This document shows positions 1-64,000 of a stretch of 64,000 nt of DNA, one piece after another (the first letter of the stretch is position 1; each line of letters opens with the position of its first letter). This DNA comes from Psammoneis japonica. Lineage: Eukaryota. The position numbers and the translations under genes were made by a program. Under the pieces are notes generated by a model. It had not been told where the DNA came from. It did no database searches and was given only the letters and a program-made list of their open reading frames with translations. The stretch lies in assembly GCA_008632985.1 (NCBI GenBank), contig QPGO01000017.1, positions 186,001-250,000 on the forward strand, in the 5' to 3' direction.

Positions 1-1200
1 TGCAAGGCATTGAGCATCAGTTGCATCATCTTTGCTTGCCCTGTTGCTCATGTCATCTTTCCCATTGTTGTTCCCCTCCTTCATGCCAGCCTTTGAGCTC
101 CCCTTTGGCAGCTCCATTTTGTTGTTGCTTGTGCACAGATCAACAAAATTGAGAGACAGTTCTGTTTCGTCATCACTTGCACACACACCAGCAATTTTTT
201 TGTCGTTGCTTGCACATGGATCAGCGCAACCACAAGGATTTTTTGGAACTTTGGGAACACATGCTGCAACATCATCATGCAAAGCCCGAGGAATCATGCG
301 CTCTGGTGCAGGATGTTTTTGCAGGGCTGCATGATGAAGCTTCAATTCAATGGCACCAGCCAGTTGAGGTCTCATCCTCTTGGCTTCCCCTTTGCAACAT
401 GGCAGTGTGTTTCTTCTGCCAATCATTGTCCTTGCCTTTGGGCAATGCTTCAATTGGAAATGGGTCAGAGAATGCTGTCAATTGCTTTCCACTGCAACTT
501 GTTGCATTGCCATGTTCCGCTTTTCTGCAAAATGCTTGTGAGCTTGTTGCACATGTTCCTCATCATCCAGACGGCGCAAAACTTCTTGTTCATGTGTGTT
601 GCCCTCTATTGGCACTGTCCTGTGTTCCTTGTCACTTGTGCATTGACCATCATCAGGCTGCTGCATTTCATTGAAGCTTGCGCACGGGCAGATCAACAAA
701 ATTGCGAGGATTTTTTGGAACTTCGGCAGCACATGCTGCAACGTGCTGCAGCAGCGTCGTCACACAAAACCAAAGGAATCATGTGCTCTGTGCAGGATGT
801 TTCTGCAGGGCTGTGCAATGAAGTTTCAATTCAATGGCCTGCCAAATGAGGTCATTCTCTTGGTTTTCTCTTTGCAACATGACAGCGTGTTTCTTCAGCC
901 GTTCATTGTTCTTGCCTTCAGGCAATGCTTCAATTGGCAATGGGTGGGAGAGAATGCTGTCGATTGCTCTCCACTGCAACTTGTTGCATTGCCACATTCC
1001 ACTTTTCTGCAAAATCCTTGTGAGCTTGTTGCATGCATCCCTTGTTGCCCAGATGATGCAAAACCTCTTGTTCACGTGTGTCATTCTCCACCGGCATGAC
1101 AAGCAGGAGATGGGATGAAGGTGCTGCAAGGAGCTGCACTTGCACTCGTGCATTGAGCAACACAGCAACAACAACAGCAAGCGTTGTTCGCGTTGGAGTT
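1..1200. repeat. TpA/CpG-depleted degenerate repeat domain containing two diverged tandem ~470-bp units (probably an element relic)
   Basis: Units ~218-606 and ~691-1090 align throughout (e.g. ggattttttggaact...cacatgctgcaac; ccactgcaacttgttgcattgcca; ttttctgcaaaat..ttgtgagcttgttgca). Only about one TA dinucleotide seen in 1.2 kb. Overlapping Tyr-poor, Cys/His/Gln-rich ORFs in all frames. Family not identified. Confidence 0.75.
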
Positions 1201-21493: not shown

Positions 21494-22268
21494 CCTCTAC
21501 AAGTACCAGATAGTTCAATGGCAGCGCCCTTGAATGATACTTCCACCCACGCTGGACCCCAACCAGCGCCTGAAAGATTCACAATTCGAAATAAAATGGG
21601 ATGAAATAGCGAGTCTCGCTGATCCCACGCTCCTCCAGTTCTCGTGGGAGTTGTGGATGAATGAGAAAATTTCAATTCCACACTTTTTGATGATTTGCTG
21701 TCGATCTTGTGAGCGACTCTGGCGGGACTGCCGGCGCGGGCAACCTTATCCTAGATTTCAGTACCACGTCTTACGTGAAGATCGTCTCGTGTAAAGAGTG
21801 TCGTTGGAAGTCGGAGACATTTTTCGATAATTTCAAACATAATCGCATATTTTAATAAGCCTATACAGATTCTAATTCTATACTACATTCAATATGGACT
21901 TAACTTCGATAGTACATCTATGACATATTAATTTCTGATTGTAAATCATAATGTGGGATATCGATTTCCTACGGGAGTCGATGGTATGAGTATATTAAGA
22001 TTGGGGTAATAACAAAAAAATTAACATGCGTAATCAAATATTCGGCCGTTTATCTCAGATCTTATTTGCGCGCTCCCATGACCTGTTGCGTATAGTGCAG
22101 TACAAGTCTTACATACACCCTCCCTTCGTATGTAAAAGTCGTTGGAAAAGTCGTTATTGCGCGGGTCTTGTGAGAACGCGATCTGCCACCACAAAACAAG
22201 ACTCACACCCGCCAACGTGGTTCGAGAAGCGCAACAGAAAAAGACAAACGAACGCCGCAGGACTAACA

Positions 22269-22414
22269 TTTGCATGCAAGAGAGGCGACGAGACACGCAG
22301 GACTTGGTTCAATCGCCAACGGCAACATCGTATGTGTAACGTTTGCATGCAAGAGAGGCGACGAGACACGCAGGACTTGGTTCAATCGCCAACGGCAACA
22401 TCGTATGTGTAACG
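22269..22414. repeat. Perfect 73-bp tandem duplication just upstream of GPN3
   Basis: tttgcatgcaagagaggcg...tcgtatgtgtaacg present twice head-to-tail (22269-22341, 22342-22414). Confidence 0.95.
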
Positions 22415-22438: not shown

Positions 22439-23448
22439 ATGGGACGATGTGCAATTCAAATCGTAATGGTATGTACTGCGGTATGTTTCATGTTTCAGAC
22501 ATACTAAAGCGATAACGCAATCGTTGACTGACCGAGTCTCACACTTGTCACTAGGGACCGGCAGGTTCGGGTAAAAGTACCTATTGCCATGCTATACAAC
22601 AGCACTGTGCGACTCTAACCGGTTCAAGGCGTCGAAGAGTACATGTTGCAAACTTGGATCCAGCAGCCGAGACCTTTCGGTATGATGTGTCCTTTGATGT
22701 GCGAGACTTGATTTCCGTTGAGGATGTCATGGAAGAGCTCGGACTCGGGCCGAATGGATCACTGATTTATTGCATGGAATATCTTCTAGAGCACTTGGAG
22801 TGGCTACAGGATCATTTAGACGATTTCTTGGATGATGAGTACCTCATTCTGGACTGCCCAGGGCAGTTAGAGCTCTACACTCACGTTCCAGTTATGAAGC
22901 GAATATTAGATCGCCTAAGAATGTGGGGCTTTGAATCAAGCATGGTCAGCGTCTTTGTTGTCGACTCAACCTTTGTGTGCGACACGTCCAAGTTCATATC
23001 TGGAAGTCTGCTCTCTTTGAGTGCAATGATTGCCATGGAGCTGCCGCACGTGAACTTGTTATCCAAATGTGATCTTGTAGATGAGGACGCAATTGAGAAC
23101 ATGCTCAATGTCGAGAGCGCAACGCAATTGTGGGATATGGAAGAGTATCGACAGCAGATTGTACACGGCGAAGAAAGTTCCGAGACTGATACCCAGCAAC
23201 CGGAGGATCGGGAACGGAGACGTTTGATTGAACAGCAACGACGAAAAAGAACCAAACTGACAGAGGCGATTTGTTCCCTGTTAGATGACTACACTATGGT
23301 TTCGTTCCTACCTCTCAATATCACCAAGGAAGACAGCATTGATCATGTGCTGACGACAGTCGACCACACTATTCAGTATGGAGAGGACCTAGATGTCCGA
23401 GAAGCAGAAGGTGGCGACGAGTTTGGATCGGCAGAAGCATTAGGCTAA
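22439..23448 (+). CDS. GPN3: GPN-loop GTPase 3
   Basis: MGRCAIQIVM|intron ~22469-22554|GPAGSGKSTYC, NLDPAAE, GLGPNGSLIYCMEYL, DCPGQLELYTH, ELPHVNLLSKCDL, IQYGED. Confidence 0.93.
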
Positions 23449-23489
23449 ACTTAGAGAAGTCACACATCTTCCTCTTTTTCAAAATTGAG

Positions 23490-23616
23490 CGTTCGAATGA
23501 TGATTCTCAGGAGCTCCTGGTCGCTGAGTATTCAGAGTCTGCCGTCACGATCCCACTCTCTTACCCTCAAGTGAAAGTAACTTTCTTTATTAATGATGCC
23601 GTCGGGGCTTGACCTT
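23490..23616 (-). pseudogene. Degenerate copy of the 3' end of the aspartic protease gene
   Basis: Aligns to 32231-32423 (gaatga, ctggtc.ctgagt, cttaccctcaa, aaagtaa, tctttattaat.atgccgt, gggcttgacctt) with an internal deletion of roughly 70 nt. Confidence 0.85.
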
Positions 23617-24799
23617 GCTTGCTTCGCTTCGTGCCAAGTTTTTTGCGCCAGTTGGTGGTTCGGGTTCGCACAATCCTTGTCAACGGACATTAGGCCCCAC
23701 TTATCGAAGGCCTAGTCTCAGTGTGACTCTCAGCAGAAAAAAGGTGATGCTGCTACTTTTCTCTCTAGACAGACTCATCAGAAAAAGATCACACTGAAGC
23801 AAGCGCATGATGTTTGCACATGCGGTGCCGCAGTCCATCTCCATGTGGCGAGTGCGACTAGAAAAGTCGGACAGTGCCACAGTTAGTCGTCACAATGGTT
23901 TTCGAGCACATTGCAACTTGCTCTCAAGATTGATGCAGACTGCCACCCACCAGTGCTGTCTGGATAACCGTTGTTTGGTCAATCAAGCAGGCCACCATCT
24001 CAAAATAAAGAGTGGCTCCTCGTGGTGCCAGCAGCCACAGCACGCTGAAAAAAGCACCCCACAAAATCAAAGGACTGTCAAATGGACAAGAAGGCACAAT
24101 TGTCAGTTTTGATTACTTTTTTCCAGTGTCTGGACAGACATGAAAAGCTCCACAGCTTGACTTGAGAATTGTTTTAAACTGGTGGTTTTTGCCAACAATC
24201 AGCCAGAGGAGAGACTACTCACTGCACTTGTGAAAGTTGCACCATGTCTCAGCAAAACAAGTGTCTCAAGAAGGGGGAGCCACCACCATCTTTGAAACCC
24301 CAAATTTCTGCCAAGTGGGTGTGCGTCATGCAGAGAGAATGCATTTGCACGAAACTGGTCTCTGCCAGTCGCTCATTGAGAGAGGGCCATTTGAGAACAT
24401 TGAGCCTTGTGCACAGCAGCAAAACAAAACAAAAAGAACAAAGCTGCTGCTGTTTTGAGGATGGCATGCCGTTGCCTTCTCAAAGGCCTCAACAACTCTT
24501 CTTGCTTTCACAACTCTTTCATGCACCTGTTGTTTTACACACATTTTCTCTCTTGCCAGCAACACTTTTGTGTCCTCTCTCTGGAAGGAACAAACTCCTG
24601 ATCACACAAGCAATCATTCATCATTGGCCAAAGCCAAGAGTGAGACTTTCATGGGTGGCTTCATCAGTGGTCATCTGCTGTTGATGATGCTGTCGCAGGA
24701 GCTGTTGCATTAAAAAGATTCAATGTCAGGAGAGCAGACACTTGACTGAAGTGACCAGATCCCAGGTTGTTGAGCTGTTGCATCACACTCTGGTGCATT

Positions 24800-24849
24800 C
24801 TCTGTCTCTCTGTCTCTCTCTGTCACTGGCTTCCCACCCATTTGTGGTC

Positions 24850-24880
<31 letters not shown>

Positions 24881-24900
24881 TCTCTCTCTCTTTCTCTTTG
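24800..24900. repeat. (CT)n microsatellite / polypyrimidine tract
   Basis: tctctctctc runs, longest at 24851-24872. Confidence 0.9.
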
Positions 24901-26299
24901 TTTCTCAGCCCCACCCATGATGTTTGTGATGCAAGAAGTCAGCTCCAAACACAAAAAGAGAGTTGAGTGGCTGCAGATGGCTTTTAGAATTCAAAATTGC
25001 ACACTGCTCTGCACACTTGATGGACAATTTGCTGAGAGCCAAGAGGGTCAAAGTTTTTCCTCTTCAATCTTTGGCTTGGTGCCCATTTTTTCTCCAACAA
25101 TTCCTTGGTGGTGCTGGGGACCTCCTGCATGCTCCATGTGCCAACTCTCAAAAAGACCATCAGAAAACCAAACTGGCCAGCAAAACATTGCCACATTTTG
25201 GGTGCTCACTTGACATCTGGCATCTCTCAGCAGATCTCCCACCCTTGCTTGTTTGGGAGCTCTGCATTTGGAGGCATGAGGCACCCATTGCAAAAAACTC
25301 TAGACCAAAATCACAAACACACAATGAGCAGTGCTCTTTCCAACTGCCATGTTGCACACAAACTTCTGCACCTTGGCTCACACATCTGGAAGCTTTTCAC
25401 ACAACCAGCCATGACAAATGACCCAGGTGACACTGCCACAAAAATTGTTTTAACAAATCTGCCTTCTTGAACCTTGGCACACAAGGAGAGGAGTTGTCAT
25501 TGTCATCTTGCTGTGCACCAGCCACAGAGAGTGAAAAAACCATGCAGAGCAAGTCAGCTCCATTTTGCAAGTGCTTGTCCTGTCAAGCACTCAGAGCTTT
25601 TGTGCACTCTGTTGGGCTTGAGAGGACAATCAGAGGAGCACAAGTGGTCCAAAAAACTGTGTTTTTCCCTGTCACTGGTGGCATGTGTTTCCCCTTTCCT
25701 CTTTCCCACATGATGCTGTGGGGTGCAACAGACCTCCCAAGTTGGGAGTGAGAATGATGATGCACAATGACTGTTTTGCTGTTGCATGCCAAACAAACAA
25801 ACTTCACTGATGTCATTGCCACTGTTGCTCCCTTGTGGCAACAACCAAACAGCCAGGATTTTGGGAGAGTCAAGCCTCCCTGTGGACAGATGACAGGTTT
25901 GATGGAGCCAGTCTTTGTTGTTGAGCCAAATCAAGCAGTGCTTCTTGCATCCCAAAAACAGTGGCACACTTCTTCAACCACCCAAGAAAGATCCAGCAGC
26001 AGTCAGAAAAGAAGGGCTCACACTGCTGAGCCTGAGAGACACAAAAATGTCTGAATCTGAAAGCTGCTGCCAAGGCAACACTGGGCAAGAACATGAAATA
26101 AACAAGATGGACAGGTTTAAAAAAAAAACAGGTCTGAAATTGAAGTGCCATTGCTTCATTGCCAGCAGCACTGATGCTGGCTGACCCACACTTCCAGCAC
26201 ATGTGACAAGTGTGGCAGAAGGAGACACAAAGGCTGGCTGGGATGGGTGTTGCCTCCCAGCAATGCCCCACCAAAGCAGCTGGCAATGGAGTGGGCACC

Positions 26300-29200
26300 A
26301 TGAAGTGCAGTGCACTTTGTTGGTTTCTCAGTGCTTTCAATCTTGGTTTTAACATGGCGACCCAATTCTGAATTGCGGAGGGCCATGCACAATGTGTTCT
26401 TCCAGTGTGTTCATCAGAACTTCTCTGTCTTTGGCGTGGCAATCCTGGCATTTGTCATGTGTGGTGTTGAGTTTGGCTTCAGCCTGTTGGCATTGGGAAG
26501 ATTTGCAAGAATCTGCTGCATCATGTCCATGAAACACAGTGTTGTGCTCTCCTCCCAGAGTTCCCACCATGACCTCCACATGTGTGCAATCCGATCTGAA
26601 CAGCCCACACAGGGGGTGGTTGATTTTCTTTCAGGCACTGTTCCAGCAGGCCTGACTCATGCATCTGCATCTCTTGAAAGGTGTTTCACAAAGCAGAGAA
26701 ATGCCCATTGAGAACACTTGTCTCCATCTGATGTTGATCTGTGCTGCTCTCCACAGTGGATGAAGGAAGAGGAAGGGGCATGCATTGGTCTTGCACACCA
26801 TCTTGTTTCAAAGCCATGCCTCCAGAGACAACAAAAGGAAATCTTGCAATGGGAGCATGGTGTCTGCCTTGTTGTTCAGACCATGGAGAAAGGTTTGTCT
26901 CCAGGCTTTGTTGTTTTGACAGCAAAGGATGTGGTCCTTGTCCTCCATGGGATGCTCACATGCAAGGCAAAAATGTGGTTGTGCTGGGTTTTGTCAGTTG
27001 GCAATTTCATTTGGAGAGGGACAAGCAATTTTCATGAGTGAGCTTGATGGTGGACAACATGCTTCTTAGAGAATCTGCAGACAAGAGGGGATGAGTGGTC
27101 CAACTGATCTTGTCTGTGACTGATTTGTCCCAGCTGTTTTGTTCACGAGTGTGTTCCATGAGGAGCAGGGGCTGCAGCTGTGCACCGCATGGACACTTTT
27201 GGTCCAGCAGCAGTGACCATTCCATCCAGAAGGCTGACATGCACTTGGCAATGGGGGAATGGCATTGCTTGGGTTGTGTTGGATGAGCATTGACCTGCCA
27301 ATTTGTCAGCTTGCACATTGACCCAAGCATTCAGAGGAAGAGTTGATGTGGGAACTTGACAATCTTGATGGCCTTTAACCCACTGGGTGACAGGTGCTTG
27401 GCCCAGGGAGGAACTGTCAACTGAAAATGCAATCTTGGTGGAGGTCTGATGGATTTTGTTGACAACATCCCAGTCAGACAACAAGACATTGGCACCATGA
27501 TGCTGGAGATTGAAATCTTTCTCTGGGCTGGCTTGGTCAAGAGTTTTGACAGATGGTCTTGAGACTGACATGCAACTGAGAATGTTTGCCAGAGCACAGT
27601 TGTCACACCAGTCATCCAAGCCCTTGCAGTGTGTCACTTGACAGAATTCAAGGACCCAAGGTGCAAAATGCAAATGGGACAGCACTCCATGGGCTTCCAG
27701 TGATGAAGGGAACCATCCAAAGAGAGGCCCATCACAATCAAAAAAGGGAACTCCTTCAATCAAAAGACAAAGTCCACCCAAAAGTTGCACTTTGAAGGTG
27801 AATGACCCATCACTCCTGGATGCAGTGGGAGAGGACACCAGGTGTCCAACAAGATCATGAAGGGACATGTGAAACACAAGATCAAGGAACAGATTCTTGG
27901 ATTTGTCCCACAGTGGAAGAGCCTGCAGGCATTCACAAAACAAGTCAGGAAGAGGTGAGTGGGTTTCCAAAGAGAGCTGCAATTGGTGGCGGGATTGAAG
28001 CTGCTGACATTTGTCATCAAAGGAAGCAAAGAGCTCAGCTGGAGAGGAGTCTTCAGAAGGGGGTGGAACAGCCTCCATTTCATGCAGAGTCAATGCTTTC
28101 TCATTGTGGGCCAAAAAGAAGTCAAGACCCACTGGGGATCAAACACATGGGAGAAATGCACCAAGGCTTGCATTTGCATCTCTCAGAGGGGGAAACCAAA
28201 CAATCTCCCCCAAAGGAGCCCACAGTTTAGCAGCAGATTTGGGGCGGCACAGTGATTTGCATGAACAGATCCAGGAGCACTGTGCAAGGTGGCAAGGCCT
28301 CTCTTGTTCCATGTTGATGAGAGTGCTGACACTGCTCAGGCAAGCAGGATCCCCATGCATCTTGGACTCATCCAGCTCCAGTCCACAGGTGAGAGTGATC
28401 TCTGAAACAGTGAAAACCTTGAGGCACAATCTGCAACAGTTGATCTGGCCAGCAGATTTCCAAGGAAGAAAGTTGGACAGATTCCAGGGCCACATCCATT
28501 GAGTGTTGGTTGTTGTTTTTGGAGAAAAAGAACACTCCATCATCTGACCAGACTGTGTTTCCTCCAATCCTTTGCAAGAAGGAGCAAACTGACATGAACC
28601 ACAAGGACTTGCAGCGAGGGTGTGAGGAGTGGTCATGTCAGTTAAAAAACTGACACCCACTCCCAAGTGCAAAACTGAGTCAAAGCAATGTGAACTGCCA
28701 CATGTGGTTGATCACCAAAGACAAAAAAGTGGCACACACCTTGTGCATGATGCAACAGTTGTTGAAGCTGTGCAACACCTTGTTTGACATCTGACAATCA
28801 GAAGCTGCCACCTCCAAGCAACTGTGGGGACCACACAAAATAAGTCATTTGGTGTTCCCCTGTTGCAACCACATTTTGCATGAGTCACACAAGCACGGCC
28901 TTTTGTTGAATCTTGAGGAGGTTTTTGGCAGTGAAGTGAGAGTTGGCCAGGACAAAGGTTGCCAATGGCAAATGACATGCATGGTGACAGCACACCAAGA
29001 TTTAGTGCAATCAAGAGGAACCAAGCAAATGAAGAGAGCTTTGCCATCACTCTTTTTCTTGCTTTTGACACTTTGAATTGCTGCTTCAGCATGCCAGCAG
29101 GGGAAGAGTGAGGGTCTTGTGAGGAGCATGGGCTGACAATTGAGTGCTGCACCTGGAGGCAGTTCAGTTTGATGGACAGGTTTTGTTCATGCTTGGCCAC
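26300..29200 (-). mobile_element. 5'-truncated, degenerate non-LTR retrotransposon (Ambal-like LINE with RNase H)
   Basis: Ordered fragments across frames: HKTL..P.G..KQQF (end of RT), AKCGCNRGTP..GP..LGG, WFMSVCSFL, QINCCRLCLKVFTVSEI...G, QERP...W, PLGE.W, RNase H motifs SDGS / GP...SS.EAHG / WCDN / SDWDV / WVKGHQD / N..AD.LA, and C-terminal WELWE.HN..FHG.D. Confidence 0.75.
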
Positions 29201-29299
29201 AACTCTGGTGGCAACAAGGAATCAAAAAATGCACTTGCCAACAGCAGCATCAAGCCACAACTTGAGCAAGATCAGCAATGGATCTTTGGACACTCAGGC

Positions 29300-31000
29300 A
29301 ACCTTTGAGGGCCTTGCACTCCCTGGAGCAATGAGCTGGGATGTGTTGTCAGCTTCAAAGGTGCACGCTCCTGTTCTGACAGGGTCATGGTGTCCTCATT
29401 GCTTTGTGGCCTGCTGCTTGTGAGACTGCTGCCTGTCAAGTGGTTGACACACATGGTGCCTTGGAATCTGTGCTCTGAGCAAGCAAGTGAACACACCTCA
29501 CCCTGCACAAAAAGGTGTGACATTTGTCTTGCCACCAGCACAAGTCTCTTTGATGTCAAGGCATTCTTGGTGTCATTCATCCACAGGTTTGCAGCAGAGT
29601 TGTGCAAAATTGTTGCTCAGCACCAGGCAGCAAGAAGAAGAGCCACAGGTGAGGGACACACACAACAAGATCTAAGAAGCACTCTCTGCTGGCACCTCAA
29701 AAGGACTCTGCTTTTGTCTTGACCCCTGCAGAGAAGTCAGCATGATCATGCTGCCTTGATGAGAAGTTGTGGTCACAAACCATCATGGCTTGTGAAACTG
29801 CAAACAGCAGCTCTCCACAGGGGCCCCACTTCTTCCAGGAGTGGCAATGTGCTGCCAGTGCAACAAAATCTCCACCACAATGGCAAAAAGAGCAGTGTGC
29901 TTTTGCCCATCATCAGATGTCCAATGCCTCCCATCTGTGGGCAGCATCTCCTTTTGTGGAAGAAACTGCAGATCCTCATGATGATCTGGCTGACTTTGCT
30001 TTTGCTTCTGACAACTGCTTGTGTGGCACATTCATGGTGGAGAGAACAGCAAATGTGTGTGCAGTCAAGGCACACACACAGTTTTTCTTGTGGCTGAGCC
30101 AGTGGTTGGTGCAGCCACCTGGAGCACCAAAGAAAAGTCTGCCAAAGAGAGTCAAAGTGTGCTCCACTTTTTGTCTTTGAGGCCTTCTGCAAGGCAGCAA
30201 AGACAGGGAAAGGTGCAGCAACTGCCCCTCAAAAGACTGAGATGGCTGTCAAAAAGAAGCAACAATGCATCAAAACAACACAGAATGTCTCAAGTGCAGT
30301 GGAAGCTCTCACAGACCTGAGGCTCAACCAAGTGGATGACAGTGACTCTGGACACTGGGAATGATCTCAAGAAGAAGAGCATCTTCCTTGTGCTCAGCCC
30401 TGACCTGAGCTGGCACACACCCCACCCAAACTTGCTCCTTCTGTTTTCACATGCACTGCTGCAGTGTGCATGCTTTGTGACTGTGCACTTGTTCTGTGTG
30501 GCTGCAAGGGTTGTGGCTTGGCATGACAATTTCTGTGCACAATGTTCAGACTCACACCCACAAAATTTGGGAGATTTGCTTGTGGTTGTTGGCAGACACA
30601 CTGTGTGTTGTTGAAGAACAAACCAAATTTTTCTCAAGTGCAGCAACTCTTGATGCAAACTGCACACAAAGAATCACACATGTGCAGTCATTTTGACCAA
30701 GGCAAGACTCTGTGCAAACAAAGCACAAAAATGATTTTTGCATCTTGTCAAACATGTCACAGCAGATTTTTTGCTGATGATCACATCCCAATGCTGGGTG
30801 TTCTTTGCATGTGCATTGAGCATGCTGCAGTTGCCACACAAGATTGTTTGCCTCCCTTTTCTTGCCTGCTGGCCATTCTTCTGAAGAGCAAAAGAAAAAC
30901 AAAAGAGGTGACATTGGCGGGTCAGTCACTTCACTGTGGGTGGGTGTGGTCTGGTTGTTGAGAACACCTTTTTGCTGTTTTTTCATCTGCTCACAGCAGG
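29300..31000 (-). mobile_element. Possible degenerate hAT-type transposase relic
   Basis: Weak motifs in the expected order: BED-finger-like GNCSMLNAHAKNTQH (~30800), TRWxS-like CTNHWLS (~30100), dimerisation-like W...LVLVARQM...SLACSEHRF (~29480). Heavily mutated. Confidence 0.3.
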
Positions 31001-31666
31001 GGTGGCTTGTCGAACAGGAGCACCACAAAAATTGTGCAGGCATTGAAGCAATGCAGCAAATCAAGAGGGTGGTCGGGCACCACCAGAGAACTTGCAGCTG
31101 CCACTGAACATGCCACCCCCTGCTGGTTTGCTCTGTTGCCATGTCAGCCAACCCAAAGCAGCAACAAAAACACTGGGCACAACTCGAACAAAAAGGGCAG
31201 GCCGGCACTGCTGCGCCAGTGGTGCAACAGACACCCAGCTCCACAACCACTGGGTGCTTGGGGATCACCACAAGGTTGTTTCACCACCAACCATCAAGGC
31301 TTGCAATGACTTTTCACCACTGCTGGTGCCAAGGATCCATGCAGCAGCCAAGAGACCTCATGGGAGGTCAGCTCCAACCAAGTGGCAAAAAAATGTGTTC
31401 CACAGCTGTTCCCAAGAGTCAAAAGAGGACTTTGGATGTTGCTGTGTGTCCAAACATTGCACACTCCAGGTGACTGCACTTGAACCTTGTGCAAGGCATC
31501 AACAAACAAGGTGAGACAATGCCAAGTTGTTGCTTTGGCTCTGGAAAAGTGAGTTGTCGTCTCCGACAATGACTCCTCCCACCACACCATCCACAGGAGG
31601 GTGGGTGCACACTGGGAGTGAGGGCTGTTCTCCCATCAGAATCACCATTGCATCAATGCAGCAGCA

Positions 31667-32190
31667 ATGTGTGTGGATTTGAGTCCAGCATGGCATGGTG
31701 AGCATCATTGCCATCAACTCCACTTTTGTGCATTGCATGTCAAAGCTCGCATCTGGGAGTCTGCTCTCCTTGAGCACCATGATTGTCACCACAGAGCCAA
31801 CAAATGTGATCCTGCTTGTGAAAATGCCACTGAAAACACACTCAATGTCAAGAGCTCAATGCAATTGTGGAATGTGGAAGAGCATTGGCAGCATCAGATT
31901 GTGCATGGGCATGAAAGTCTCCGCGAGACTTTTGCCCAGCAACCAGTGGTTCAGGAGGAACAGACACATTTGATTGAACAACAATGATGAAAAAGAAGCA
32001 AACTGACCAAGCAACGTGATTTGTTCTTTGTTGGATGGTTTGTTCTCACCTCTCAATGTCACTAAGGAAGACAGCATTGATCATGTGCTGATGACAGTCG
32101 ACCACACTATTCAGTGTGGAGAGGACCTAGACGTCCGAGAAGCAGAACGCGACGACGAGTCTGGATCGGCAGAAGCACTGGGCTTGACTT
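31667..32190 (+). pseudogene. Degenerate duplicate of the 3' half of GPN3
   Basis: MVSIIAINSTFVHCMSKLASGSLLSLSTMI vs MVSVFVVDSTFVCDTSKFISGSLLSLSAMI; NTLNVKSSMQLWNVEE vs NMLNVESATQLWDMEE; 32049-32145 nearly identical to 23311-23408. Frameshifts and TGA stops. Confidence 0.95.
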
Positions 32191-32240
32191 AATCCTAGAA
32201 ATATGACAAATCTAGGAAAGAAATTTTAATGCTTGAATGA

Positions 32241-33653
32241 TTATCGGGAACTGCTGGTCACTGAGTTTCCACAGTCTGCAGTCGCGATCCCCACTCGCTT
32301 ACCCTCAACGTCAAAGTAAATGTCTTTATTAATCATGCCGTTGGCTCCAATAACCGCACCCTCAGCTTCATCCACGTAAACTCGATTTATTAATTCCTCT
32401 GTACCAGACCAGGGCTTGACCTTACCTGTTTCATCCAGCGGTACTCCTTCCATGAACGACTCTGGGAACAACGTAAAGGGGACTCCTTTGCTTTTGTCGT
32501 TGTTGATTTCATGGCCAAGACCACCGCCAGTCGCGAAACCTCCGCTCGCCAAAACAAAGTTTATTCGGGGCAGCGTGAGGAACTCATCGAATGTGTATAG
32601 TCGCGTGCGCTTCTCGTAGTCCATGCCAGTGACCTGCTTCCAAGCTTTCTTAAAACTGCCCTCGACTGCTTGCGGGAGATAAGTGTCGGTTGTCCCGCTA
32701 TCGAGAATAGTGCCCTTACCACTTGCAAATGCTGTGAGTTCACTAGCAAGCCACCAACTTTGCAAGGAAGCTTCTCGGCATGCCACGCAAACGTGTCCAA
32801 CCCTCACCTCCAATACGGCGACACTATACCAACTCTTGGCGGTCTTCACCAAGGGCGAGAATTTCATTGGTTCCAGATGTCTTGATGTCAGAGCACCACC
32901 GAGTGAAAAATGTCCACCAGCAGCTGTGAGGCACATGGAAAACGCGTTCCGTGGTATTGATCCCAATTGGTACATAGCTTGGATGACAGACGTGTCATGC
33001 ATTGCCAAACCCAGAATCCCATCAGCATACTGCTTTGTAAATAATCCCGTCTCTTGGGTTTGACATCCAAATGCATATGGGATCGCCATACGCATAAACG
33101 ACTCATAGCTCTCCTCCTCTTCAGGGGATCCAAACCAAACAATGTCCTCGGTTTCATACGCTCGCCACGAAGATCCCTCTGTGTACTTTTGAGACAAGTG
33201 ACATTTGTTGTCACGCGGTGAACAAGTAGCAATGTCTTCCAAGAAACATTTCCCGCACTCTGGTATTACGTCGGTAGTGCTCACGGCTGGATCAAAGAAA
33301 CTCGATGTGTGCTTCCCACACTGTCGGCAGGGTCGACACGGAAATGCCATGAGTCGAGAGCCCGTGTCAACAATGAGGGCCTGTCTTTGCGGTGGTGATC
33401 CCACGTATACGTAAACATGGTGAGTCCCTGAAGTTGCATGAAGCGGAACTGTCAAGGAAGCCTCTTGTACTTCAAAGGTTTCCGATTCACCAGTCTGTGA
33501 ACGAAGAGTCTCAGTGTCAATGGCGAGCTCCGAGTCACCACCCCGAAGACTCGCAAGCCGTCGTCCGGTTGTAGGTATGACTGCCAATCTCACAACAAGC
33601 CCCGTGCAAATCAGAATCAACAACAAGTCGGTGCGTATTCGAAGCCAACCCAT
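32241..33653 (-). CDS. A1-family aspartic protease (plasmepsin V/APCB1-like), secreted or ER
   Basis: Signal anchor; catalytic LIVDTGS and ILDSGTT; flap YTEGSSW; FGCQ..ETGLF..QYADGILGL; C-terminal VIGAN...FD...RVGIA.ADC. Confidence 0.93.
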   Translation of the reverse strand: MGWLRIRTDLLLILICTGLVVRLAVIPTTGRRLASLRGGDSELAIDTETLRSQTGESETFEVQEASLTVPLHATSGTHHVYVYVGSPPQRQALIVDTGSRLMAFPCRPCRQCGKHTSSFFDPAVSTTDVIPECGKCFLEDIATCSPRDNKCHLSQKYTEGSSWRAYETEDIVWFGSPEEEESYESFMRMAIPYAFGCQTQETGLFTKQYADGILGLAMHDTSVIQAMYQLGSIPRNAFSMCLTAAGGHFSLGGALTSRHLEPMKFSPLVKTAKSWYSVAVLEVRVGHVCVACREASLQSWWLASELTAFASGKGTILDSGTTDTYLPQAVEGSFKKAWKQVTGMDYEKRTRLYTFDEFLTLPRINFVLASGGFATGGGLGHEINNDKSKGVPFTLFPESFMEGVPLDETGKVKPWSGTEELINRVYVDEAEGAVIGANGMINKDIYFDVEGKRVGIATADCGNSVTSSSR

Positions 33654-34063
33654 GTTGATTTTCTTCTTGGGTGTCAGATTGGCAAAGTTCGCAATCTTAC
33701 TTGTTAGACGTCATCGACGAGCGCCACGACCACGACGGCGGCGACCACCATTTTCTGTTTGATATTTTTGATTTTTTTGTGCCGTGATCCGATTTCCAGA
33801 TTGGTGACCGAACGATATATTAGATAAATATGTATGAATATTAATTACATTATTTTAATAAATAAGGGTGATGTCACAACGGAAAAAGCATTCATTCGCA
33901 ATGTCCTCCGTGTTTTGCCGCTCGGCGGACGCAGCACGCATGGCGGCGGCAAGAAGAGAGCGCAGTTTTTTCCTTCAGGCGTGAACTGTTGAAAGCTTTT
34001 GATAGGTCGCTTCGCCCCTCTTGCTCATCCTCATGCTTATTTTTCAATTTGGAGTTGGAAAGA

Positions 34064-39340: not shown

Positions 39341-39838
39341 TGAAGGAAAGACGGAATTGCTATGGCCGAGTCGTCACACGAGAACAGCAGCTTGTATGGC
39401 ATACCATATGGCGGCCTTCAGCGGCTTTGGCAGTCATCGTATCTGCGTTGTTGCGCATTTTCGTTTTTTTCTCCACCCATCCCGCCCTGTTAAAGGACAG
39501 ACGCTTAATTATAACCTAAATCAATGATTACAGTAATCAATTTCACAAATAATTATTCACATGGATACAGAAACTCAATATAACATTATCTGTGAATAAA
39601 TAGGTAAATCTCTCACAAGTACACTTAAACAGTGTATATGAGTGTATGATATCAAACAACCATTCATTTTAATATCTGCCAACGACTACGCCATACAATT
39701 GCTACATACACAACGAATATACTGACAAATCCGTAAAAGGATTTTGATTTGAATTCCTCCAACGGCCGGCGTGCTCTCAACAAAACTGCCGTTTGCTTCC
39801 AAGCGAAGAGACATCACAAGAGAACGAACGCGAGCACC

Positions 39839-42800
39839 ATGGCAAGCGATACAACGGGATTTCCTATCCCGGCGTCTCTGCAGGATCTAGAACGCGATCC
39901 TTACAACCTTCTTCCGTACCCGATCGATTTTGATGATGACGACGAGGCGGCTCGAGCAGATTCCTTCAACGCATTGGTGCATTTAGTCGAACAGGGCAAT
40001 CGTTCCTTGATGAGTGGGGGGATTTCGCTCTTTGAGAAGACGAACAGTGAAGATGAACAGTGGATGGACGAGGATCGAGTCCAGGCGCTCTATACCCTAG
40101 TAAGGTGGGTAAAGATATCACGCGTGCAGGTATTTTGCCGTATACATACTCTCTTCTCACCGACATGTGTTTGTTCGTTTCGCGGATACTTCAGAAAGTC
40201 GTCTTCAATAGCTCCAGGAACAAGAAAGCGACTCGTTGCAGCTCTCTGTCAGGCAGTAGAGGGACTGTCTAGCATTCTTGCTACATCTGCGCAAGATGCA
40301 TCGACCGAGGAGCCAGATCCATCCAACCAAGTCGTCGTACCTCAAGAATTCCGTGACGCGTTTGCCTGTCACTTGTACATGCTTTTTTCGATCATGTTTT
40401 TTACTGAGTCAGAAGCAAAAGGAGGAAAGGGACTTGGTGGTAAGGCTGTGGCTAGTCGGTCCGATGACAAGAATGAGACGGCCGAGGTGATATCTTCGAG
40501 AGCAGCTTGTGCACAGGCAATGCTCGCTGCAGCCCAGTCAATGGGAAAGCACAAATCAAGGCTTTGGAAAAGGGGAGTCCCAGACGAAGCTGTCATTGGT
40601 TTGCCGTGTCGAATCGCTTACCAAATGTTGGAGGGTGCGACCGGTGTCGTCGCAAGGAAAGCAGCGTCTGCCGACGAAGCTCTGGCGATGATATCGGCAA
40701 CTGTGGACTCTGCAGACTGTCTACTTGGTACCGTCGTGGCGGCACTGATGGATCTGCTTCATTCCTTTGAGCACATTGCTCCATTGGTTGCCGAACTTTG
40801 TGATATGTCCACAGATGCTAATAATCGTCTTGCAATTGAGTTACTCAGGGAGATTGAACGCCTCGATACCGCTTCAACTTCTAGTTCCCACGATACCGGC
40901 GGAAAGGCGAGCGGGGTACGAAATGTTGCGCCATTCATAAGCGAGATCGCTGCCGTCCGGCCTCGCGTTGTCCTATCGAACATTTCTTTGATTCTTCCGC
41001 ACCTTGATTCAGAGCCTTACAGTCTGCGATCTGCAATCGTGGTGGCCATTGGCCGCATTCTTGCTAATATCGGTGAGACCGAAAGAGTTGAAAGGACTTC
41101 GAACCTAGGGAATATGGAAGAAGCGAGCTCGGAAGAGAATAGCACGCTAAACCTGACAAAGTCGCGTGATGCTCTCTTTGATGTATTATCAAAAAGGGTT
41201 CACGACGTGAGCTCCTTCACGAGGGCAGCTGTACTAAAGGCGTTTAACGGTCTCACTCAGAACCAATCGATTCCGCTTGAGAAAGTGAACTCTGTTACCG
41301 CTCTTGCCATTGATAGGCTCAAAGATAAAACTGTCATGGTTCGAAGGACAGCTATGCAGGTATGTAAGCTTGCCTGCTAATTCTAATCATGTTGGAACTG
41401 AAACTAACAAACCGTTTTCGTTTGCTGTCGCTCAGCTTCTGACGTCGCTGCTCGAAAATAACCCGTTTCTGGGTTCTTTAGATCCCGAACCTTACAAACG
41501 CAAGTTATCGGAGCTATTTGAGTTTATCAGATCAAACCTTCCGACCGATATCAAGGAAGCGTACGAGAGCGCTTTGGCTGATGCAGGCGATGACGCAGAC
41601 TCTGAGATTCTCCGGGAAGTTGACCACGCTGCAGTTAGTGCAGCTGTAGCGGAGGGCATTTCAAAGGATCTATCTGTGGACCTCACGGAAGAAGAGAAGA
41701 ACTTTTGCTCCAAGTGTAAGGCAGTTGAATTCTCTCAGGCAGCGCTTGATTTCATTGAACTATTTGAGCTGTCCCATCAAACATTCCAAGGCATGCTCCT
41801 TTCGGCGACTTCGAGCGACGTCACCGAAGCACTCCGATTCTTTGTTCGGGCCCGACATTTTCAACTTCCGTGCGCAATTACAGGAGTTAAACATGCCCTT
41901 CCACTCATGTGGTCAACTGAACCTGCAATCAAGGACGAGGTTCTGAAGACATTCGTCGAAGTTTTCATTGCAGTACCAGGGACTGACGGAAAGGAACCTC
42001 TCCCAGACAACAAGATAGCACACAACCTTCTTGTTCTAGCTGGGCGCGCATCACTAAGCGAGCAAGCTTCCATCGAAGAAGCTCTTGGCAAGCTTGTGAG
42101 GGATGAAGTCATCCCCGTTGATGTTTTTCTTATCCTATGGTCAATAGCTTCAAAAGCTTCTGGAGAGGCTAGAGCCGCGGCAATGCTAGTCTTGTCAATG
42201 GCAGCCAGTGCCAACCCTAGTATTGTCGACAGTGCAAGCCGATTGAGATTGCTTCTAGAGTCTGGTCTTGGAGATTATACAGAAGAGCACCGAGATTGGC
42301 GGACGGCTCGTTCTGCTGCTTGCGCGCTCCAGCGAATCGCAAAGGTCAACGCCGAGCCCGCATCCGCAAGATTTATTGTTTTGGAGCAAATTGTTGATCG
42401 GCTCTGCGCCATCGTGAGGGGCGATTGGTGCATAGACAGCAGTAGTAAAGATACGCGAATGTGGTTCTCGACAGCTGAACAAGCTATTGATGCTCTGTTT
42501 GTCGTTTGTCCAGAGCCAGAAGTTACAAGCGCCGCCATTATCAGGGAAATGGCCACCGCCACATTTGGAAACGACGAGAACGATGCACCGTCATGTCATT
42601 CGCAACGGCTCGCGCGGTTCTTTTTTGTGGTTGGACACGTAGCCTTGAAGCTGCTTGTATATACTGAATCAATCAGTGCTTCGGTGCGACGGGGAAACGC
42701 CAACAAGTCTCTGAAGATGCAAGAAATGGCGGATAACGACAAGGTACAAAGACAATCTTTACCACAAGATTCTTCTACCGAGGAAGATGAAGATGCCATT

Positions 42801-43976
42801 GAAGAAGAGTTGGGAATTGCGGCAGAGGTTGAAGCTGAGAACGAAAGAAAGCTTGCCGACATATCCGAGAAAGAGATTGTAAGTCGCGGTCTAATTGGCG
42901 TGTATGGACCACTACTAGTAAGGGTCGTGGGAAACGATGGCGGATGCTTCAATTCCGAGATTCTAGTGCAGAGTGCTACTTTGGGGCTCTGCAAGTTGAT
43001 GTGCATTTCAAGTTCTTTCTGCGAGAAGCATCTTCCACTTCTTTTCACAGCTCTTGCAAATGCTCCGTCGGAAGATACAACGCTCAGAGCAAACACCGTG
43101 GTCGCTCTTGGTGATCTCGCTTTCAGGTTTCCCAACGAGGTGGAACCGTACACACCACGCCTCTACGCTTGCCTTCGTGACAGCTCCACCAAGGTTAGGC
43201 GCCACACATTGATGGTGCTCACCCACCTAATTCTCAACGATATGGTAAAGGTGAAAGGGCAGGTCTGCGAAATTGCCATGTCTTTGCAAGATGACGATGC
43301 CAGGATCCGCGATATGTCAAGACTTCTCTTCCACGAGCTCAGCAAACGAAGCAACAACCCGATCTACAACCTCCTTCCAGATATTGTCAGCCAGCTCAGC
43401 CAAATGTCTCTCAGGAAAGAGAGTTTTCGAACTATCATGTCGTTCTTGTTGGGATTCATCAAGAAGGAACGTCAGATCGAGATGCTTGTGGAAAAGCTAT
43501 GCCACCGTTTTCCAAAGTGCACCACAATATCACAGAAAGCTGACATTGCCTTTTGCCTAGCGCAACTGAAAATGAGCGAGAAATCAATCAAAGCTCTGAA
43601 TGATCTATTCAAGCTCTATAAGGACGCACTCTTCGACGACGATGTGCGAAAGAGCTTCGTTTCCATTGTCACAAAAACCAGGAAAACAGCAAAGCCCGAG
43701 TCAAAGGAGTGTCTTGACGAGTGGGATGCTAAACTGAACGAGCACGCCGCGGTGGGAGTGGAAAATGAACTAGCCGGTCAGAAGGCAGAGCGCGCAAAGT
43801 CGAAGGCTTCGAAACGAGCGGCTCGGAAGAAAAAGGGGCAGGCAAAAGAGTCTCTGTGTGACGAGGACAAAGAAAATGAGACACAGGTGCATCGCCCGCG
43901 CACCAAGTCGAGCAGACCTAGATCAACACGAAGACGAACTGGCTCAGCTTCACTGGCCAAAGGGAACAGGGGTTGA
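39839..43976 (+). CDS. NCAPD2: Condensin I complex subunit 1 (CAP-D2/Cnd1)
   Basis: HEAT repeats: ESEPYSLR-like segment, RVHDVSSFTR, RLKDKTVMVRR, LLENNPF, SDVTEA, ATLGLCKLMCISSSFCEKHL, RANTVVALGDLAFRFPN, VLTHLILNDMVKVKGQ, IYNLLPDIVSQLS. Introns ~40104-40194 and ~41360-41435. Confidence 0.95.
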
Positions 43977-44414: not shown

Positions 44415-44830
44415 AGAGATGATCTACCGCAGTACTTTTAGCTACGATAGTCTACCGGGACCGTGCGTTTCTTGCTACGTACAAAATAGAAAAGACCATA
44501 CCGGTAGCATGCGTATATCTCTAAACTATCTATGGGTACGAGTAAGTGAGTAGTACCGTAGAGAGAAGTGCAGCTAGGTCCCTACCATAGCAAGGATTCG
44601 GTCCCTCTACGTCGTAAATGCCGTGGTTGAAGAGATGATCTACCACAGTACTTCTAGCTAGTCTACCGGGACCGTGCTTTTCTTGCTACGTACAAACTCT
44701 AGAAAAGACCATGTCGCTAGCATGGTAAATCTCTAGTAGACTATCTATGGGTACGAGTAGAGTAGTACCGTAGAGAACTGTACAGCCAGGTCCCTACCAT
44801 AGCAAGGACTTGGTCCCTCTACATCGTAAA
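44415..44830. repeat. Diverged ~215-bp tandem duplication, non-coding, TpA-rich
   Basis: agagatgatctacc...aggtccctaccatagcaagga...ggtccctctac.tcgtaaa at 44415-44618 and 44632-44830. Confidence 0.9.
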
Positions 44831-59337: not shown

Positions 59338-60341
59338 CAGAAAACGTATCCGCGGTATGGTAAGTGCGGTCATAACGGCGGTATGGAAATCTGATTGGAC
59401 AAACGACGTCAGCTAAAAACTTTGTTGTTCACAATAAGTAATGTTGACATCATTATTGCCCCCCCAGCTACAACCGGTACGGTAGCCGCACGCACGCAAT
59501 CTACCTACAGTACGGTACGTACAGTACTGTACACTGTATCAGACGCATCACGTCAAGTACTTCTACTGAAGCCGCGCCTACATAGAATTGTTTTTGTGCA
59601 AGTCGCCATGGCGGTGTGTGGTTGTTTTGGACAACTTCTCTCTACTTTATGACTGTAGAAGTAGCATCAATCGATAATATGAAGTAGTTATGATACGTGT
59701 CGAGAAGGAAATGGTGACGCTTTGCGTACTTCTTTCCAAAATGGACCTGTTGCATTGAAAGAATTTTTCAGGTCTTTTCTTGCATCGCAGATGGCCATGC
59801 ATAAGGTCCCTAAACTAGATCTCTATGACACAGAAACTGCCATAGAGAGTAATTTAGATATAGCGGATTGAACGGTGTTATATGTAAGCTAAATGATTTT
59901 AGTATAGGTGGACTAAATGGCCCGAGAAGGACGGTGCAAAACTTTCTACTTGAAAGTTGAAGAAATTATCCCTTAAGAGTGTCGGACTTGCATTGAACAA
60001 AAAAGAGAAACAACGAACACATACTATCAAGAATACTGCGGTTCTAATGGTGTTATTTTTATGCTCACCAGTCCGAAAATTGCCGCTGTCATGGGCGGTT
60101 CGTGCTGTTTGCGTACACAGTGTGTTGTCTTTTTTCACGTCTCTTGGCTCTTGGGGGACTTGAGAATTTTTGAAGTTGCTCGGCGGCGGCGACGCACGCC
60201 GGGCCGAATAAATGGTGGGGTAAGGATGATGTCATCTTTACTTAATGTGAAGAGTAAATTTCATAGCTGACGTCGTTTGTCCAATCAGATTTCCATACCG
60301 CCGTTATGACCGCACTTACCATACCGCGGATACGTTTTCTG
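59338..60341. mobile_element. Non-autonomous TIR DNA transposon (MULE/Mutator-like MITE), recent insertion
   Basis: Perfect 78-bp terminal inverted repeats (59338-59415 / 60264-60341, starting cagaaaacgtatccgcgg) and identical 9-bp direct repeat agcaaggga on both flanks (59329-59337, 60342-60350). No transposase ORF. Confidence 0.93.
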
Positions 60342-63500: not shown

Positions 63501-64000
63501 CACCACTTCCAATCAATGCTAAAATGAGGTCAAAAGAATCCTTGCCCATCACTGCACCTCTCTGGGGAAATAAACCAAGCCTGATTTAAAGTGCCGCCAC
63601 ACCTTTGCCCAGCAACGCTGGTGCTGGCCAACCCCCCCCACACCTCCAGCACACCCTGCAAGGGATGAGGCACCTGAGCCATTGTCTCCCAGGGGAGACG
63701 CCCAATTGAAATGGCTGGAAATGGCGTGTTTGCCATGTGCCAACAACTTCTTTGCTTCCTTCAAACTTTGCTGCAGGTGGGGCCAAACCATGGAAATCCA
63801 GCTCTGGATGCAAGTGGTGGAGAATGTCTGATGTTCTTCTGCCAAATCTGGCAAAACTCCTCAATCTTTGGCCAAGTGCTCTTGTCGCTCATTGCAAATT
63901 GCCATCAATTCATCTTTGGCCATGCGCCCATGAGATGACTTGCAAGAATCTACACTGTGGCCATGCATGAGCTGATTGTGTTTTCTCCTCCCACAATTCC
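60560..64000. repeat. TpA/CpG-depleted degenerate domain (probable element relic, runs off the window)
   Basis: Same composition as 24100-32050: TA nearly absent, CG fading with distance from the edge, many short Tyr-free ORFs. Element family not identified. Confidence 0.7.

Follow-up and report, generated by a model that had tools for sequence, protein, structure and literature searches.

The window analysed here is a stretch of 64,000 nucleotides from Psammoneis japonica (assembly GCA_008632985.1, contig QPGO01000017.1, positions 186,001 to 250,000 of the forward strand), and it contains three domains, decayed retrotransposon copies by homology, from which most of the dinucleotides TpA and CpG have disappeared. 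Domain A (positions 1 to 1271) is cut by the window start and retains one TpA and 29 CpG. Domain B (24010 to 32060; 8,051 bp) retains 18-19 TpA and about 30 CpG. Domain C (60560 to 64000) is cut by the window end and retains 11 TpA, the loss of CpG being partial in its section 60560-61800. The domains were recognized from dinucleotide counts per kb, from the edge positions of every TA and CG, and from counts for sub-domains; together they comprise 12,763 bp, and the remaining 51,237 bp of the window served as the background. The number of TpA per kb is 0-7 in the domains versus 22-101 elsewhere in the window, and that of CpG is 0-18 versus 44-94, corresponding to a decrease of about 94% for TpA and about 88% for CpG. 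If TpA were as dense in the domains as in the remainder of the window, about 511 would be expected there, versus 30 found. The loss is clustered, since eleven consecutive 1-kb windows, in three blocks, show a TA observed/expected ratio of 0.10 or less.

The missing steps reappear as TpG and CpA, which are present in the domains at 1.6-2.1 times expectation. The TA fraction of dinucleotides is 0.0024 in the domains versus 0.0400 outside and the CG fraction 0.0072 versus 0.0598, a combined loss of 0.090 that is close to the combined gain of 0.0835 for CA and TG (domain/background ratios of 0.06 for TA, 1.66 for CA, and 1.52 for TG). The G+C content is 48.1% in the domains and 48.7% outside. Because the loss and the gain nearly agree and G+C stays steady, the figures are as expected if TA and CG were converted to TG or CA. 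Local strand bias of TG versus CA was not detected in any 500-bp bin at p<0.01, which gives no indication of a link with transcription or with the direction of replication. The original prediction, based on TpA within 24170-29680 of domain B, was right about the TpA bias and left out the loss of CpG over the same domain.

The origin of the domains was examined by homology. The longest open reading frame (ORF) of domain B (27143-28138, minus strand, 331 aa) carries an RNase-H-like sequence following the reverse transcriptase (RT) region, and an HMMER search with this ORF gave 52 homologues at E<=1e-3 (best 1e-14; 31-36% identity). Among the nine best or longest of these 52 that were subjected to Pfam scan, two contained Exo_endo_phos, two RVT_1, and one RNase_H, while four gave nothing. 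By tblastn, the 52 homologues align collinearly on the minus strand from 29142 to 26385, a segment predicted to be the C-terminal two-thirds of a decayed ORF of the long interspersed nuclear element (LINE) type, with apurinic/apyrimidinic endonuclease (APE), RT, and RNase H. One homologue also matches 63959 to 63666 in domain C, and the segment 63561-64000 of that domain (minus strand) is homologous to 26116-26564 of domain B, in the C-terminal region of the LINE; the purine/pyrimidine alignment of the two segments scores 128.5, versus 74 or less for shuffled sequences. Since the homologues carry APE, RT, or RNase H and align collinearly, the homology establishes the domains as decayed copies of one LINE-type retrotransposon family. 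Direct scanning was uninformative: Pfam gave no family in the 18 read-through frames of the three domains (stops taken as X), a scan of the ORFs at E<=10 gave only a chance match to VWA_N2, and a purine/pyrimidine k-mer search detected neither long terminal repeat-like sequences nor terminal inverted repeats in domain B. The homologues contain 1.0-6.2% Tyr; at six positions of conserved Tyr, none is kept in the local copy, the codons being TGT, TGC, CAT, TTT, CTG, and ACA.

Short pieces within 26162-28934 have look-alikes of less than 90% identity on other contigs of sequencing run X1, and the X1 word depth rises to 143-175 at 26005-27338. Both are consistent with a dispersed repeat family located elsewhere in the genome.

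Whether such a composition was acquired in place can be read from a duplication that crosses the edge of domain B. The window was compared with itself in the purine/pyrimidine alphabet, using k-mers and then alignments, this coding being chosen because the relevant changes are all transitions. Two direct copies were found on the plus strand. The left duplicate (22922-23639) carries the working 3' end of a GPN-loop GTPase gene (22555-23448, plus strand; Pfam ATP_bind_1, 6.5e-73) and a relic of the 3' end of an aspartic protease gene; in the right duplicate (31670-32377) the roles are exchanged, the GTPase 3' end being a relic and the 3' end of the protease gene (32241-33710, minus strand) the working one. 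The left duplicate is unmutated, whereas the right duplicate is crossed by the edge of domain B at about 32060 and is hypermutated to the left of it and not to the right. To the left of this edge, all 10 aligned TpA of the left duplicate are altered in the right one (five to TG, four to CA, and one to CT), and so are 20 of the 21 CpG in the alignment, by C>T in 10 cases, G>A in 8, and a transversion in 4. To the right of the edge, 7 of 11 TpA and 7 of 15 CpG are retained.

The change is limited to these two steps. Inside the domain, A>G was found at 9 of 18 TpA adenines, one per site being the maximum, versus 19 of 180 other adenines (8/56 ApA, 5/61 CpA, and 6/63 GpA; Fisher p=1.3e-4), and outside the domain at 2 of 22 TpA adenines and 14 of 134 others. 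Since the rates of A>G at other adenines are alike inside and outside, the excess is restricted to TpA; the equal excess at AA, CA, and GA that would have contradicted the original prediction was not found in this pair. Likewise, C>T inside the domain affects 18 of 42 CpG bases but 17 of 134 other cytosines (p=8e-5).

A second pair of copies leads to the same view. In domain A, two tandem copies (198-614 and 666-1096, plus strand) differ by alternation of TG and CA at matching sites: pairs of pyrimidine-purine steps include 13 CA/TG, 15 of CG versus TG or CA, and one TA/CA. This alternation indicates that the ancestral steps, shared by both copies, were resolved in each of them separately. Comparison of the copies demonstrates that the change happened in place, on resident DNA. 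The targets are of transposon origin, yet the host-gene relic lying within the domain is also rewritten; because its duplicate 8.7 kb away is intact, the process acts on the domain rather than on sequence origin or repetition, and because the left duplicate is untouched, it is not triggered by duplication.

The arrangement of the duplicates has further features. The direct duplication of 0.7 kb, in which two convergent genes meet at their 3' ends, brackets the 8-kb domain B, and the GTPase and protease genes each use a different duplicate as the working 3' end; its length is far beyond that of an ordinary target-site duplication. At 31711-31713, 31731-31732, 31775-31776, and 31839-31840, TG steps of the left duplicate read CA in the right one. 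Such double changes point to long residence under the process, during which ordinary transitions would refeed TA and CG that are then randomly resolved.

The 30 TpA that survive in the domains, all of which were listed, are located in particular contexts. Twelve are TTAA, 12 are TTAB or VTAA (B, not A; V, not T), and six are VTAB, whereas the background TpA comprise 72 TTAA, 646 TTAB or VTAA, and 1,333 VTAB. Thus TTA or TAA accounts for 24 of 30 survivors versus 718 of 2,051 (35%) in the background (Fisher odds ratio 7.4, p=7e-7), and TTAA for 12 of 30 (40%) versus 72 of 2,051 (3.5%; binomial p=1.7e-10), while RTAY, which makes up 655 of 2,051 background TpA (32%), is represented by none of the 30. 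The surviving TTAA of domain B are at 24174-24177, 24710-24713, 25450-25453, 26117-26120, 26349-26352, 27375-27378, and 28642-28645, and those of domain C at 60978-60981, 61107-61110, 62826-62829, 62978-62981, and 63586-63589. Three ATAA survivors sit within A-runs.

Expressed as density relative to the background, the symmetrised tetramers range from 0.67 for TTAA through 0.15 for CTAA/TTAG, 0.05 for GTAA/TTAC and for ATAA/TTAT, 0.04 for CTAC/GTAG and for CTAG, and 0.03 for ATAG/CTAT, to zero for ATAT, ATAC/GTAT, and GTAC. In the count over the window, survival of NTAN is therefore far from proportional to the background frequencies. For triplets the ratios are 0.02 for ATA/TAT and for GTA/TAC, 0.06 for CTA/TAG, and 0.18 for TTA/TAA, in agreement with the original prediction that CTA, GTA, TAC, and TAT are nearly gone, and the persistence of AA runs that it described is seen as a ratio of 1.48 for AAA/TTT. 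It had also described the survivors at 24170-29680 as almost all in TTA or TAA context, and this stands, since the 17 TpA of this section consist of 7 TTAA, 8 TTAB or VTAA, and 2 of neither kind. Its list of survivors included 15 of these 17 and lacked CTAC (24216) and CTAG (25301), the two exceptions.

As the pattern was derived from 24170-29680, replication was sought in the 13 TpA located in the domains outside this section. Five of these are TTAA (p=5e-5) and nine contain TTA or TAA (p=0.013). A null independent of the host composition was obtained from the flanks of the 2,874 TG and CA steps within the domains, 6.6% of which have T and A on the two sides; against this null the enrichment remains significant both for TTAA (p=2e-7) and for TTA or TAA (p=3e-4).

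The survivor counts were then described by a Poisson model in which the rate on each strand is set by the base 5' of T and the rates of the two strands are summed. The two-parameter version assigns a rate of 0.26 to a T flank and of 2.13 to the other bases, an approximately 8-fold slowing, and predicts 10.7 TTAA, 14.7 half-protected, and 4.7 unprotected survivors versus 12, 12, and 6 observed (likelihood-ratio test against a uniform rate, p=2.6e-12). Such a two-strand additive fit agrees with the idea of the original prediction that TTA blocks one strand and TTAA both. Four separate rates (A 2.7, C 1.44, G 2.55, and T 0.25) give a modest further gain (p=0.018), so that a C flank confers intermediate protection and the rule is graded. 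The second flank also contributes: it is T in 22 of 36 (61%) T-flanked half-sites of survivors, versus 28% in the background (p=4.5e-5) and 30% at TG and CA steps within the domains (p=1e-4), and TTTAA plus TTAAA show no depletion (15 in the domains and 41 outside; density ratio 1.47). The flank rule is thus real, additive between strands, graded, and extended beyond 4 bp.

The orientation of this rule, which the original prediction gave as a V-T-A target, is a separate matter. Survivors are silent on it, since a TTA reads as TAA on the opposite strand; the slowing by a flanking T is supported by the model fit, while the survivors accommodate a T-A-B target equally well and the product counts lean towards it. 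If T at position -2 is the blocking base, TTAB should become TCAB; if A at position +1 is the blocking base, TTAB should become TTGB. The excess of products in the domains over the background is +341 for TTGB plus VCAA and +108 for TCAB plus VTGA, and the losses that feed products with T flanks are 149 TpA and 281 CpG half-sites. Under V-T-A, the TTG-type sites derived from CpG would consequently have to outnumber the CpG available for loss. With a 5' A or G the products are reversed (xTG versus xCA, 133 versus 240 and 167 versus 299), and with a 5' C they are equal. The flank asymmetry of products may in part be owed to a preference of the CpG arm for T-C-G>T-T-G, and products derived from CpG, together with the uncertain ancestral composition, confound the product counts. 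Known ancestors are few: among three informative ancestral TpA of the left duplicate, as we read them, two favour A at +1 and one favours T at -2, and the conserved Tyr codons give three usable TpA sites, none with a T flank. From the products and these ancestors we lean towards a block by a purine, chiefly A, located 3' of the target adenine, by which the first A of an A-run would be protected.

The loss of CpG accompanies that of TpA in the same domains with different proportions. The numbers of surviving TA and CG are 1:29 in 1-1271, 18:18 in 24010-29680, 0:12 in 29681-32060, 3:21 in 60560-61800, and 8:12 in 61801-64000, and the ratio varies among sub-domains (chi-square 28.2, p=1.1e-5). 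At two edges the loss of TpA extends 0.2-1.2 kb past that of CpG (about 200 bp in domain A); in 60560-61800 and 1075-1271, TpA is already gone and CpG only partly lost. Survival of CpG is nearly independent of the flanks (0.06-0.20 by tetramer), and conversion to TpG or CpA takes place on both strands, as is evident from the 21 aligned CpG, whose 42 bases show C>T 10 times and G>A 8 times. The differing TA:CG ratios, the non-coincident edges, and the flank independence of CpG altogether suggest two activities drawn to the same silent domain rather than one enzyme.

Outside the domains, the window contains typical genes. The ORF at 41289-43976 encodes a condensin subunit, of which the best named relatives are from Nitzschia, Cylindrotheca, Mayamaea, Conticribra, and Cyclotella (about 58-62% identity), and the identity to metagenome proteins is up to 72%. 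By this protein similarity the window is assigned to diatom nuclear DNA. The remaining long ORFs are typical eukaryotic genes, such as those for HIRA, cyclin, ankyrin proteins, the aspartic protease, and the GPN-loop GTPase. The gene for condensin subunit 1 is represented by two overlapping ORFs, 39737-41380 and 41289-43976 (Cnd1_N and Cnd1 domains), and probably an intron or a frame change lies between them. In the contigs of sequencing run X2, GT..AG introns are skipped, and these contigs cover neighbouring genes, including 22554-23455 and 32210-33756. Domain B is flanked by two convergent expressed genes; no X2 contig was found over 24004-32007, a lack of cover that is not proof of silence.

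Other repeats were also detected. A tandem repeat at 44415-44830 (212-bp unit, 1.9 copies, 85% matches) lies in the sole kb of the window with an excess of TpA (101 TA, observed/expected 1.33). Another tandem repeat is located at 22264-22414, just upstream of the GTPase gene (73-bp unit, 2.1 copies, 98% identical), and is represented by a separate 73-letter X1 contig at about twofold depth. An inverted repeat (59338-59466 and 60213-60341; 129 nt, 90% complementary, arms 746 nt apart) resembles a small terminal-inverted-repeat element about 220 bp to the left of domain C, and neither TA nor CG is depleted in it.

We consider it likely that the retrotransposon domains were subjected to in-place hypermutation of TpA and CpG, in which the TpA arm reads the flanking bases. 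The decayed LINE-type insertion of 8 kb and at least two further stretches of the window would have undergone hypermutation at their present location, with each self-complementary pyrimidine-purine step pushed to TpG or CpA, TpA being lost by A>G and CpG by C>T on either strand. The TpA event on each strand would be slowed about 8-fold by a 5' T, equivalent to a 3' A on the other strand, and to some extent by C (or G). Because the effects of the two strands add, TTAA, and above all TTTAA and TTAAA, should be nearly immune and RTAY should be wiped out. By analogy with what has been proposed for Bigelowiella natans (see below), the TpA arm may be enzymatic deamination of adenine in DNA, giving inosine that is read as G, and the flank rule may be the enzyme's own preference. 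The CpG arm would be separate, either a methylation-linked deamination of 5-methylcytosine or a RID-like activity.

GC-biased gene conversion was considered and rejected, because G+C is steady, because the equally strong loss of CpG runs from GC to AT, and because A>G shows no excess at ApA, CpA, and GpA. On this point the original prediction, which had favoured an enzyme preference over gene conversion, was borne out; its enzyme is an interpretation that shares the same survivors with a shield. A context-blind mutator, with TTAA sites shielded by a modification, a bound protein, or a stiff junction of T-run and A-run that resists base flipping, would account for survivors rich in runs, for the second flank being T in 22 of 36 half-sites, for undepleted TTTAA and TTAAA, and for uneven protection among sub-domains, such as a shield dependent on chromatin or modification could give. 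The order of flanks (T<C<A,G) and the additivity of strands are instead as from a flank-reading enzyme, and the sequence carries no sign of a TTAA-specific factor; a structural effect would act via the enzyme and is therefore not cleanly distinguished from its preference. Such shielding appears unlikely to us. Slightly less likely still is a TpA arm that starts from a modified base at TpA, oxidised thymine or N6-methyladenine, and proceeds by error-prone repair or mispairing instead of deamination. TpA and CpG are both self-complementary, as is typical for targets of symmetric DNA-modifying enzymes, the CpG arm is most simply linked to 5-methylcytosine, and T>C and A>G are indistinguishable in double-stranded DNA. 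Against this route, the sole experimental precedent was interpreted by its authors as A-deamination, though unproven there, and to our knowledge, no search aimed at it having been made, there is no TpA-directed modification in diatoms.

The remaining alternatives have far smaller weight. The age of the domain (17.5% other substitutions and double swaps between TG and CA) and the three ATAA survivors within A-runs would suit the idea that the remaining TpA are fresh mutations of TG, CA, or runs of A and T, and that the excess of TTAA reflects availability. This is improbable, because flanks of T and A are found at 6.6% of the 2,874 TG and CA steps in the domains but at 40% of TpA (p=2e-7), and even if all were new, their persistence solely in these contexts would need context-dependent removal. 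Joint suppression of CpG and UpA is described for RNA viruses (PMC3829696), and an element might therefore, like many RNA viruses and cytoplasmic RNAs, have been born poor in both steps, or have been purged of them by selection, with nothing mutated in place. That the GTPase relic in the domain is converted and its outside copy is not, that the tandem copies settled the same sites differently, that homologues have 1.0-6.2% Tyr and the local copy keeps none of six conserved Tyr codons, and that observed/expected ratios of 0.0-0.1 are far past known avoidance make this origin very improbable. As improbable is an artefact of sequencing or assembly in which modified bases were miscalled as TG or CA, as heavily modified DNA is generally known to mislead some base callers. 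Over the domain, the X1 k-mer contigs, at a word depth of about 60, agree with the window except for 0-1 differences in each piece, X1 being possibly the source of the window rather than independent of it; indels and transversions are found between the paralogues as well, and the sites are consistently TG or CA, unlike random miscalls. Between the X1 contigs and the window, four single-letter differences were found in 20 kb, none of them informative on the direction of mutation. At 28355 an X1 contig differs from the window by A>G, and behind 28515 by one extra T.

Several observations weigh against hypermutation with a flank-reading TpA arm. The profile is drawn from just 30 survivors in a single 64-kb window, and the ancestral TpA contexts were taken from the host background or from the flanks of TG and CA steps in the domains, not from a consensus of the element. 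No TTAA is left in 1-1271 and 29681-32060, versus an expectation of 5.1 (Poisson P=0.006). These TTAA-less stretches are the ones with the deepest overall loss of TpA, as would follow from a protected rate that is small but not zero. Protection of TTAA is strong, but it is neither absolute nor uniform. Furthermore, the ancestor is known for a single TTA (23282), and this one was mutated, to TTG. Between the two duplicates inside the domain, 55 other substitutions were found in 314 positions outside TA and CG (17.5%), which indicates that the stretch is old, and some of the surviving TpA may thus have arisen newly. Finally, among 19 metagenome loci of related diatoms (177,244 bp), no 500-bp window had a TA observed/expected ratio below 0.2; these loci, found with the condensin query at 56-62% protein identity, are gene-rich contigs of distant relatives and carry little weight either way.

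Among known systems, RIP, the repeat-induced point mutation known from Neurospora and other fungi, is similar in being an in-place transition hypermutation of transposons as a defence, which leaves coding sequence unrecognisable and riddled with stops. RIP, however, converts CpA to TpA and thereby raises TpA, which here is at 0.06 of the background; it mutates both duplicates, whereas here only the copy in the domain is mutated; and it has no A>G arm. Many diatoms are reported to have RID-like DNMT4 genes of unknown function, and diatom transposons to be methylated via DNMT5a (PMC9998398). The CpG arm resembles the methylation-driven decay of CpG in silenced transposons of vertebrates and plants with respect to conversion to TpG or CpA, action on both strands, and weak flank dependence, but is deeper (observed/expected 0.00-0.09 in cores) and is accompanied by a TpA arm. 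APOBEC3 proteins also introduce flank-dependent transitions into retroelements by deamination, a likeness to which the possible T-C-G>T-T-G preference of the CpG arm may be added; their target is cytosine on one strand, in single-stranded cDNA that is not yet integrated, in contrast to the changes found here, which are post-integration, affect both strands, and include adenine.

For the TpA arm, the chemistry of ADAR, of TadA and ADAT2-3, and of DNA base editors derived from TadA is pertinent, because conversion of A to inosine would yield A>G. In the target of tRNA adenosine deaminase, U33-A34, a U is located 5' of the target A. ADAR prefers 3' neighbours in the order G>C~A>U, and this 3' G preference does not fit, because among the triplets TAG/CTA ranks second in protection (0.06), versus 0.02 for TAC and TAT. 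Directly 5' of the target A, ADAR prefers U or T (cited in 10.64898/2026.01.13.699255). The natural ADAR and ADAT enzymes act on RNA, whereas the changes here are fixed in DNA, on both strands, and include the host-derived relic.

The closest system is that of B. natans, for which a preprint (Mettrop et al., bioRxiv 10.64898/2026.01.13.699255, 2026) describes de novo A>G and T>C changes only at TpA in integrated viral DNA and proposes an ADAT2-like candidate, deamination being not proven. It is the sole precedent found for natural adenine hypermutation in DNA, and none for diatoms was found in the literature searched, which lay mostly outside subscription journals. As described in the preprint, TpA is converted to TpG or CpA in stretches derived from foreign DNA or transposons, windows with loss of TpA and gain of CpA plus TpG are clustered, and RT and endonuclease domains are enriched among TpA-poor genes, as in the domains analysed here. 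The host is a chlorarachniophyte, a rhizarian, there and a diatom, a stramenopile, here; CpG is lost together with TpA here and is never named in the main text of the preprint; the observed/expected ratio is 0.0-0.1 here versus 0.45 in their region of a nucleocytoplasmic large DNA virus; an episodic mutation rate about 1000-fold over background was measured there, whereas the process here is known from its sequence signature; and the main text of the preprint gives no rule for flanking bases, although its Table S2, with 231 de novo TpA mutations, and Figure 2B may bear on flanks. In comparison with the main text, the flank rule of the present domains is the first quantitative specificity profile for TpA hypermutation. 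With such a profile, biochemists can pair a footprint with a candidate deaminase, and annotators can spot and date edited elements that are missed by protein-domain searches. What is added to the B. natans-type signature is its presence near completion in an unrelated and ecologically dominant algal lineage, coupled to loss of CpG, and confined to retrotransposon domains with sharp edges beside working genes. It is tentatively possible, though we would not yet count it probable, that diatoms possess a domain-targeted defence by DNA editing, with a true DNA adenine deaminase or a complex containing one that reads a footprint of 4-6 bp, plus a cytosine arm at CpG; T-A followed by a pyrimidine would be the preferred target, and junctions of T-run and A-run would be immune. 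A natural adenine editor acting on double strands within a defined context would be of interest for base editing, and the immunity of TTAA would serve as a fingerprint permitting identification of the enzyme. If such a defence exists, the diatom domains together with those of Bigelowiella would suggest that editing of invading DNA at TpA is an old and widespread form of immunity in the supergroup of stramenopiles, alveolates, and Rhizaria (SAR).

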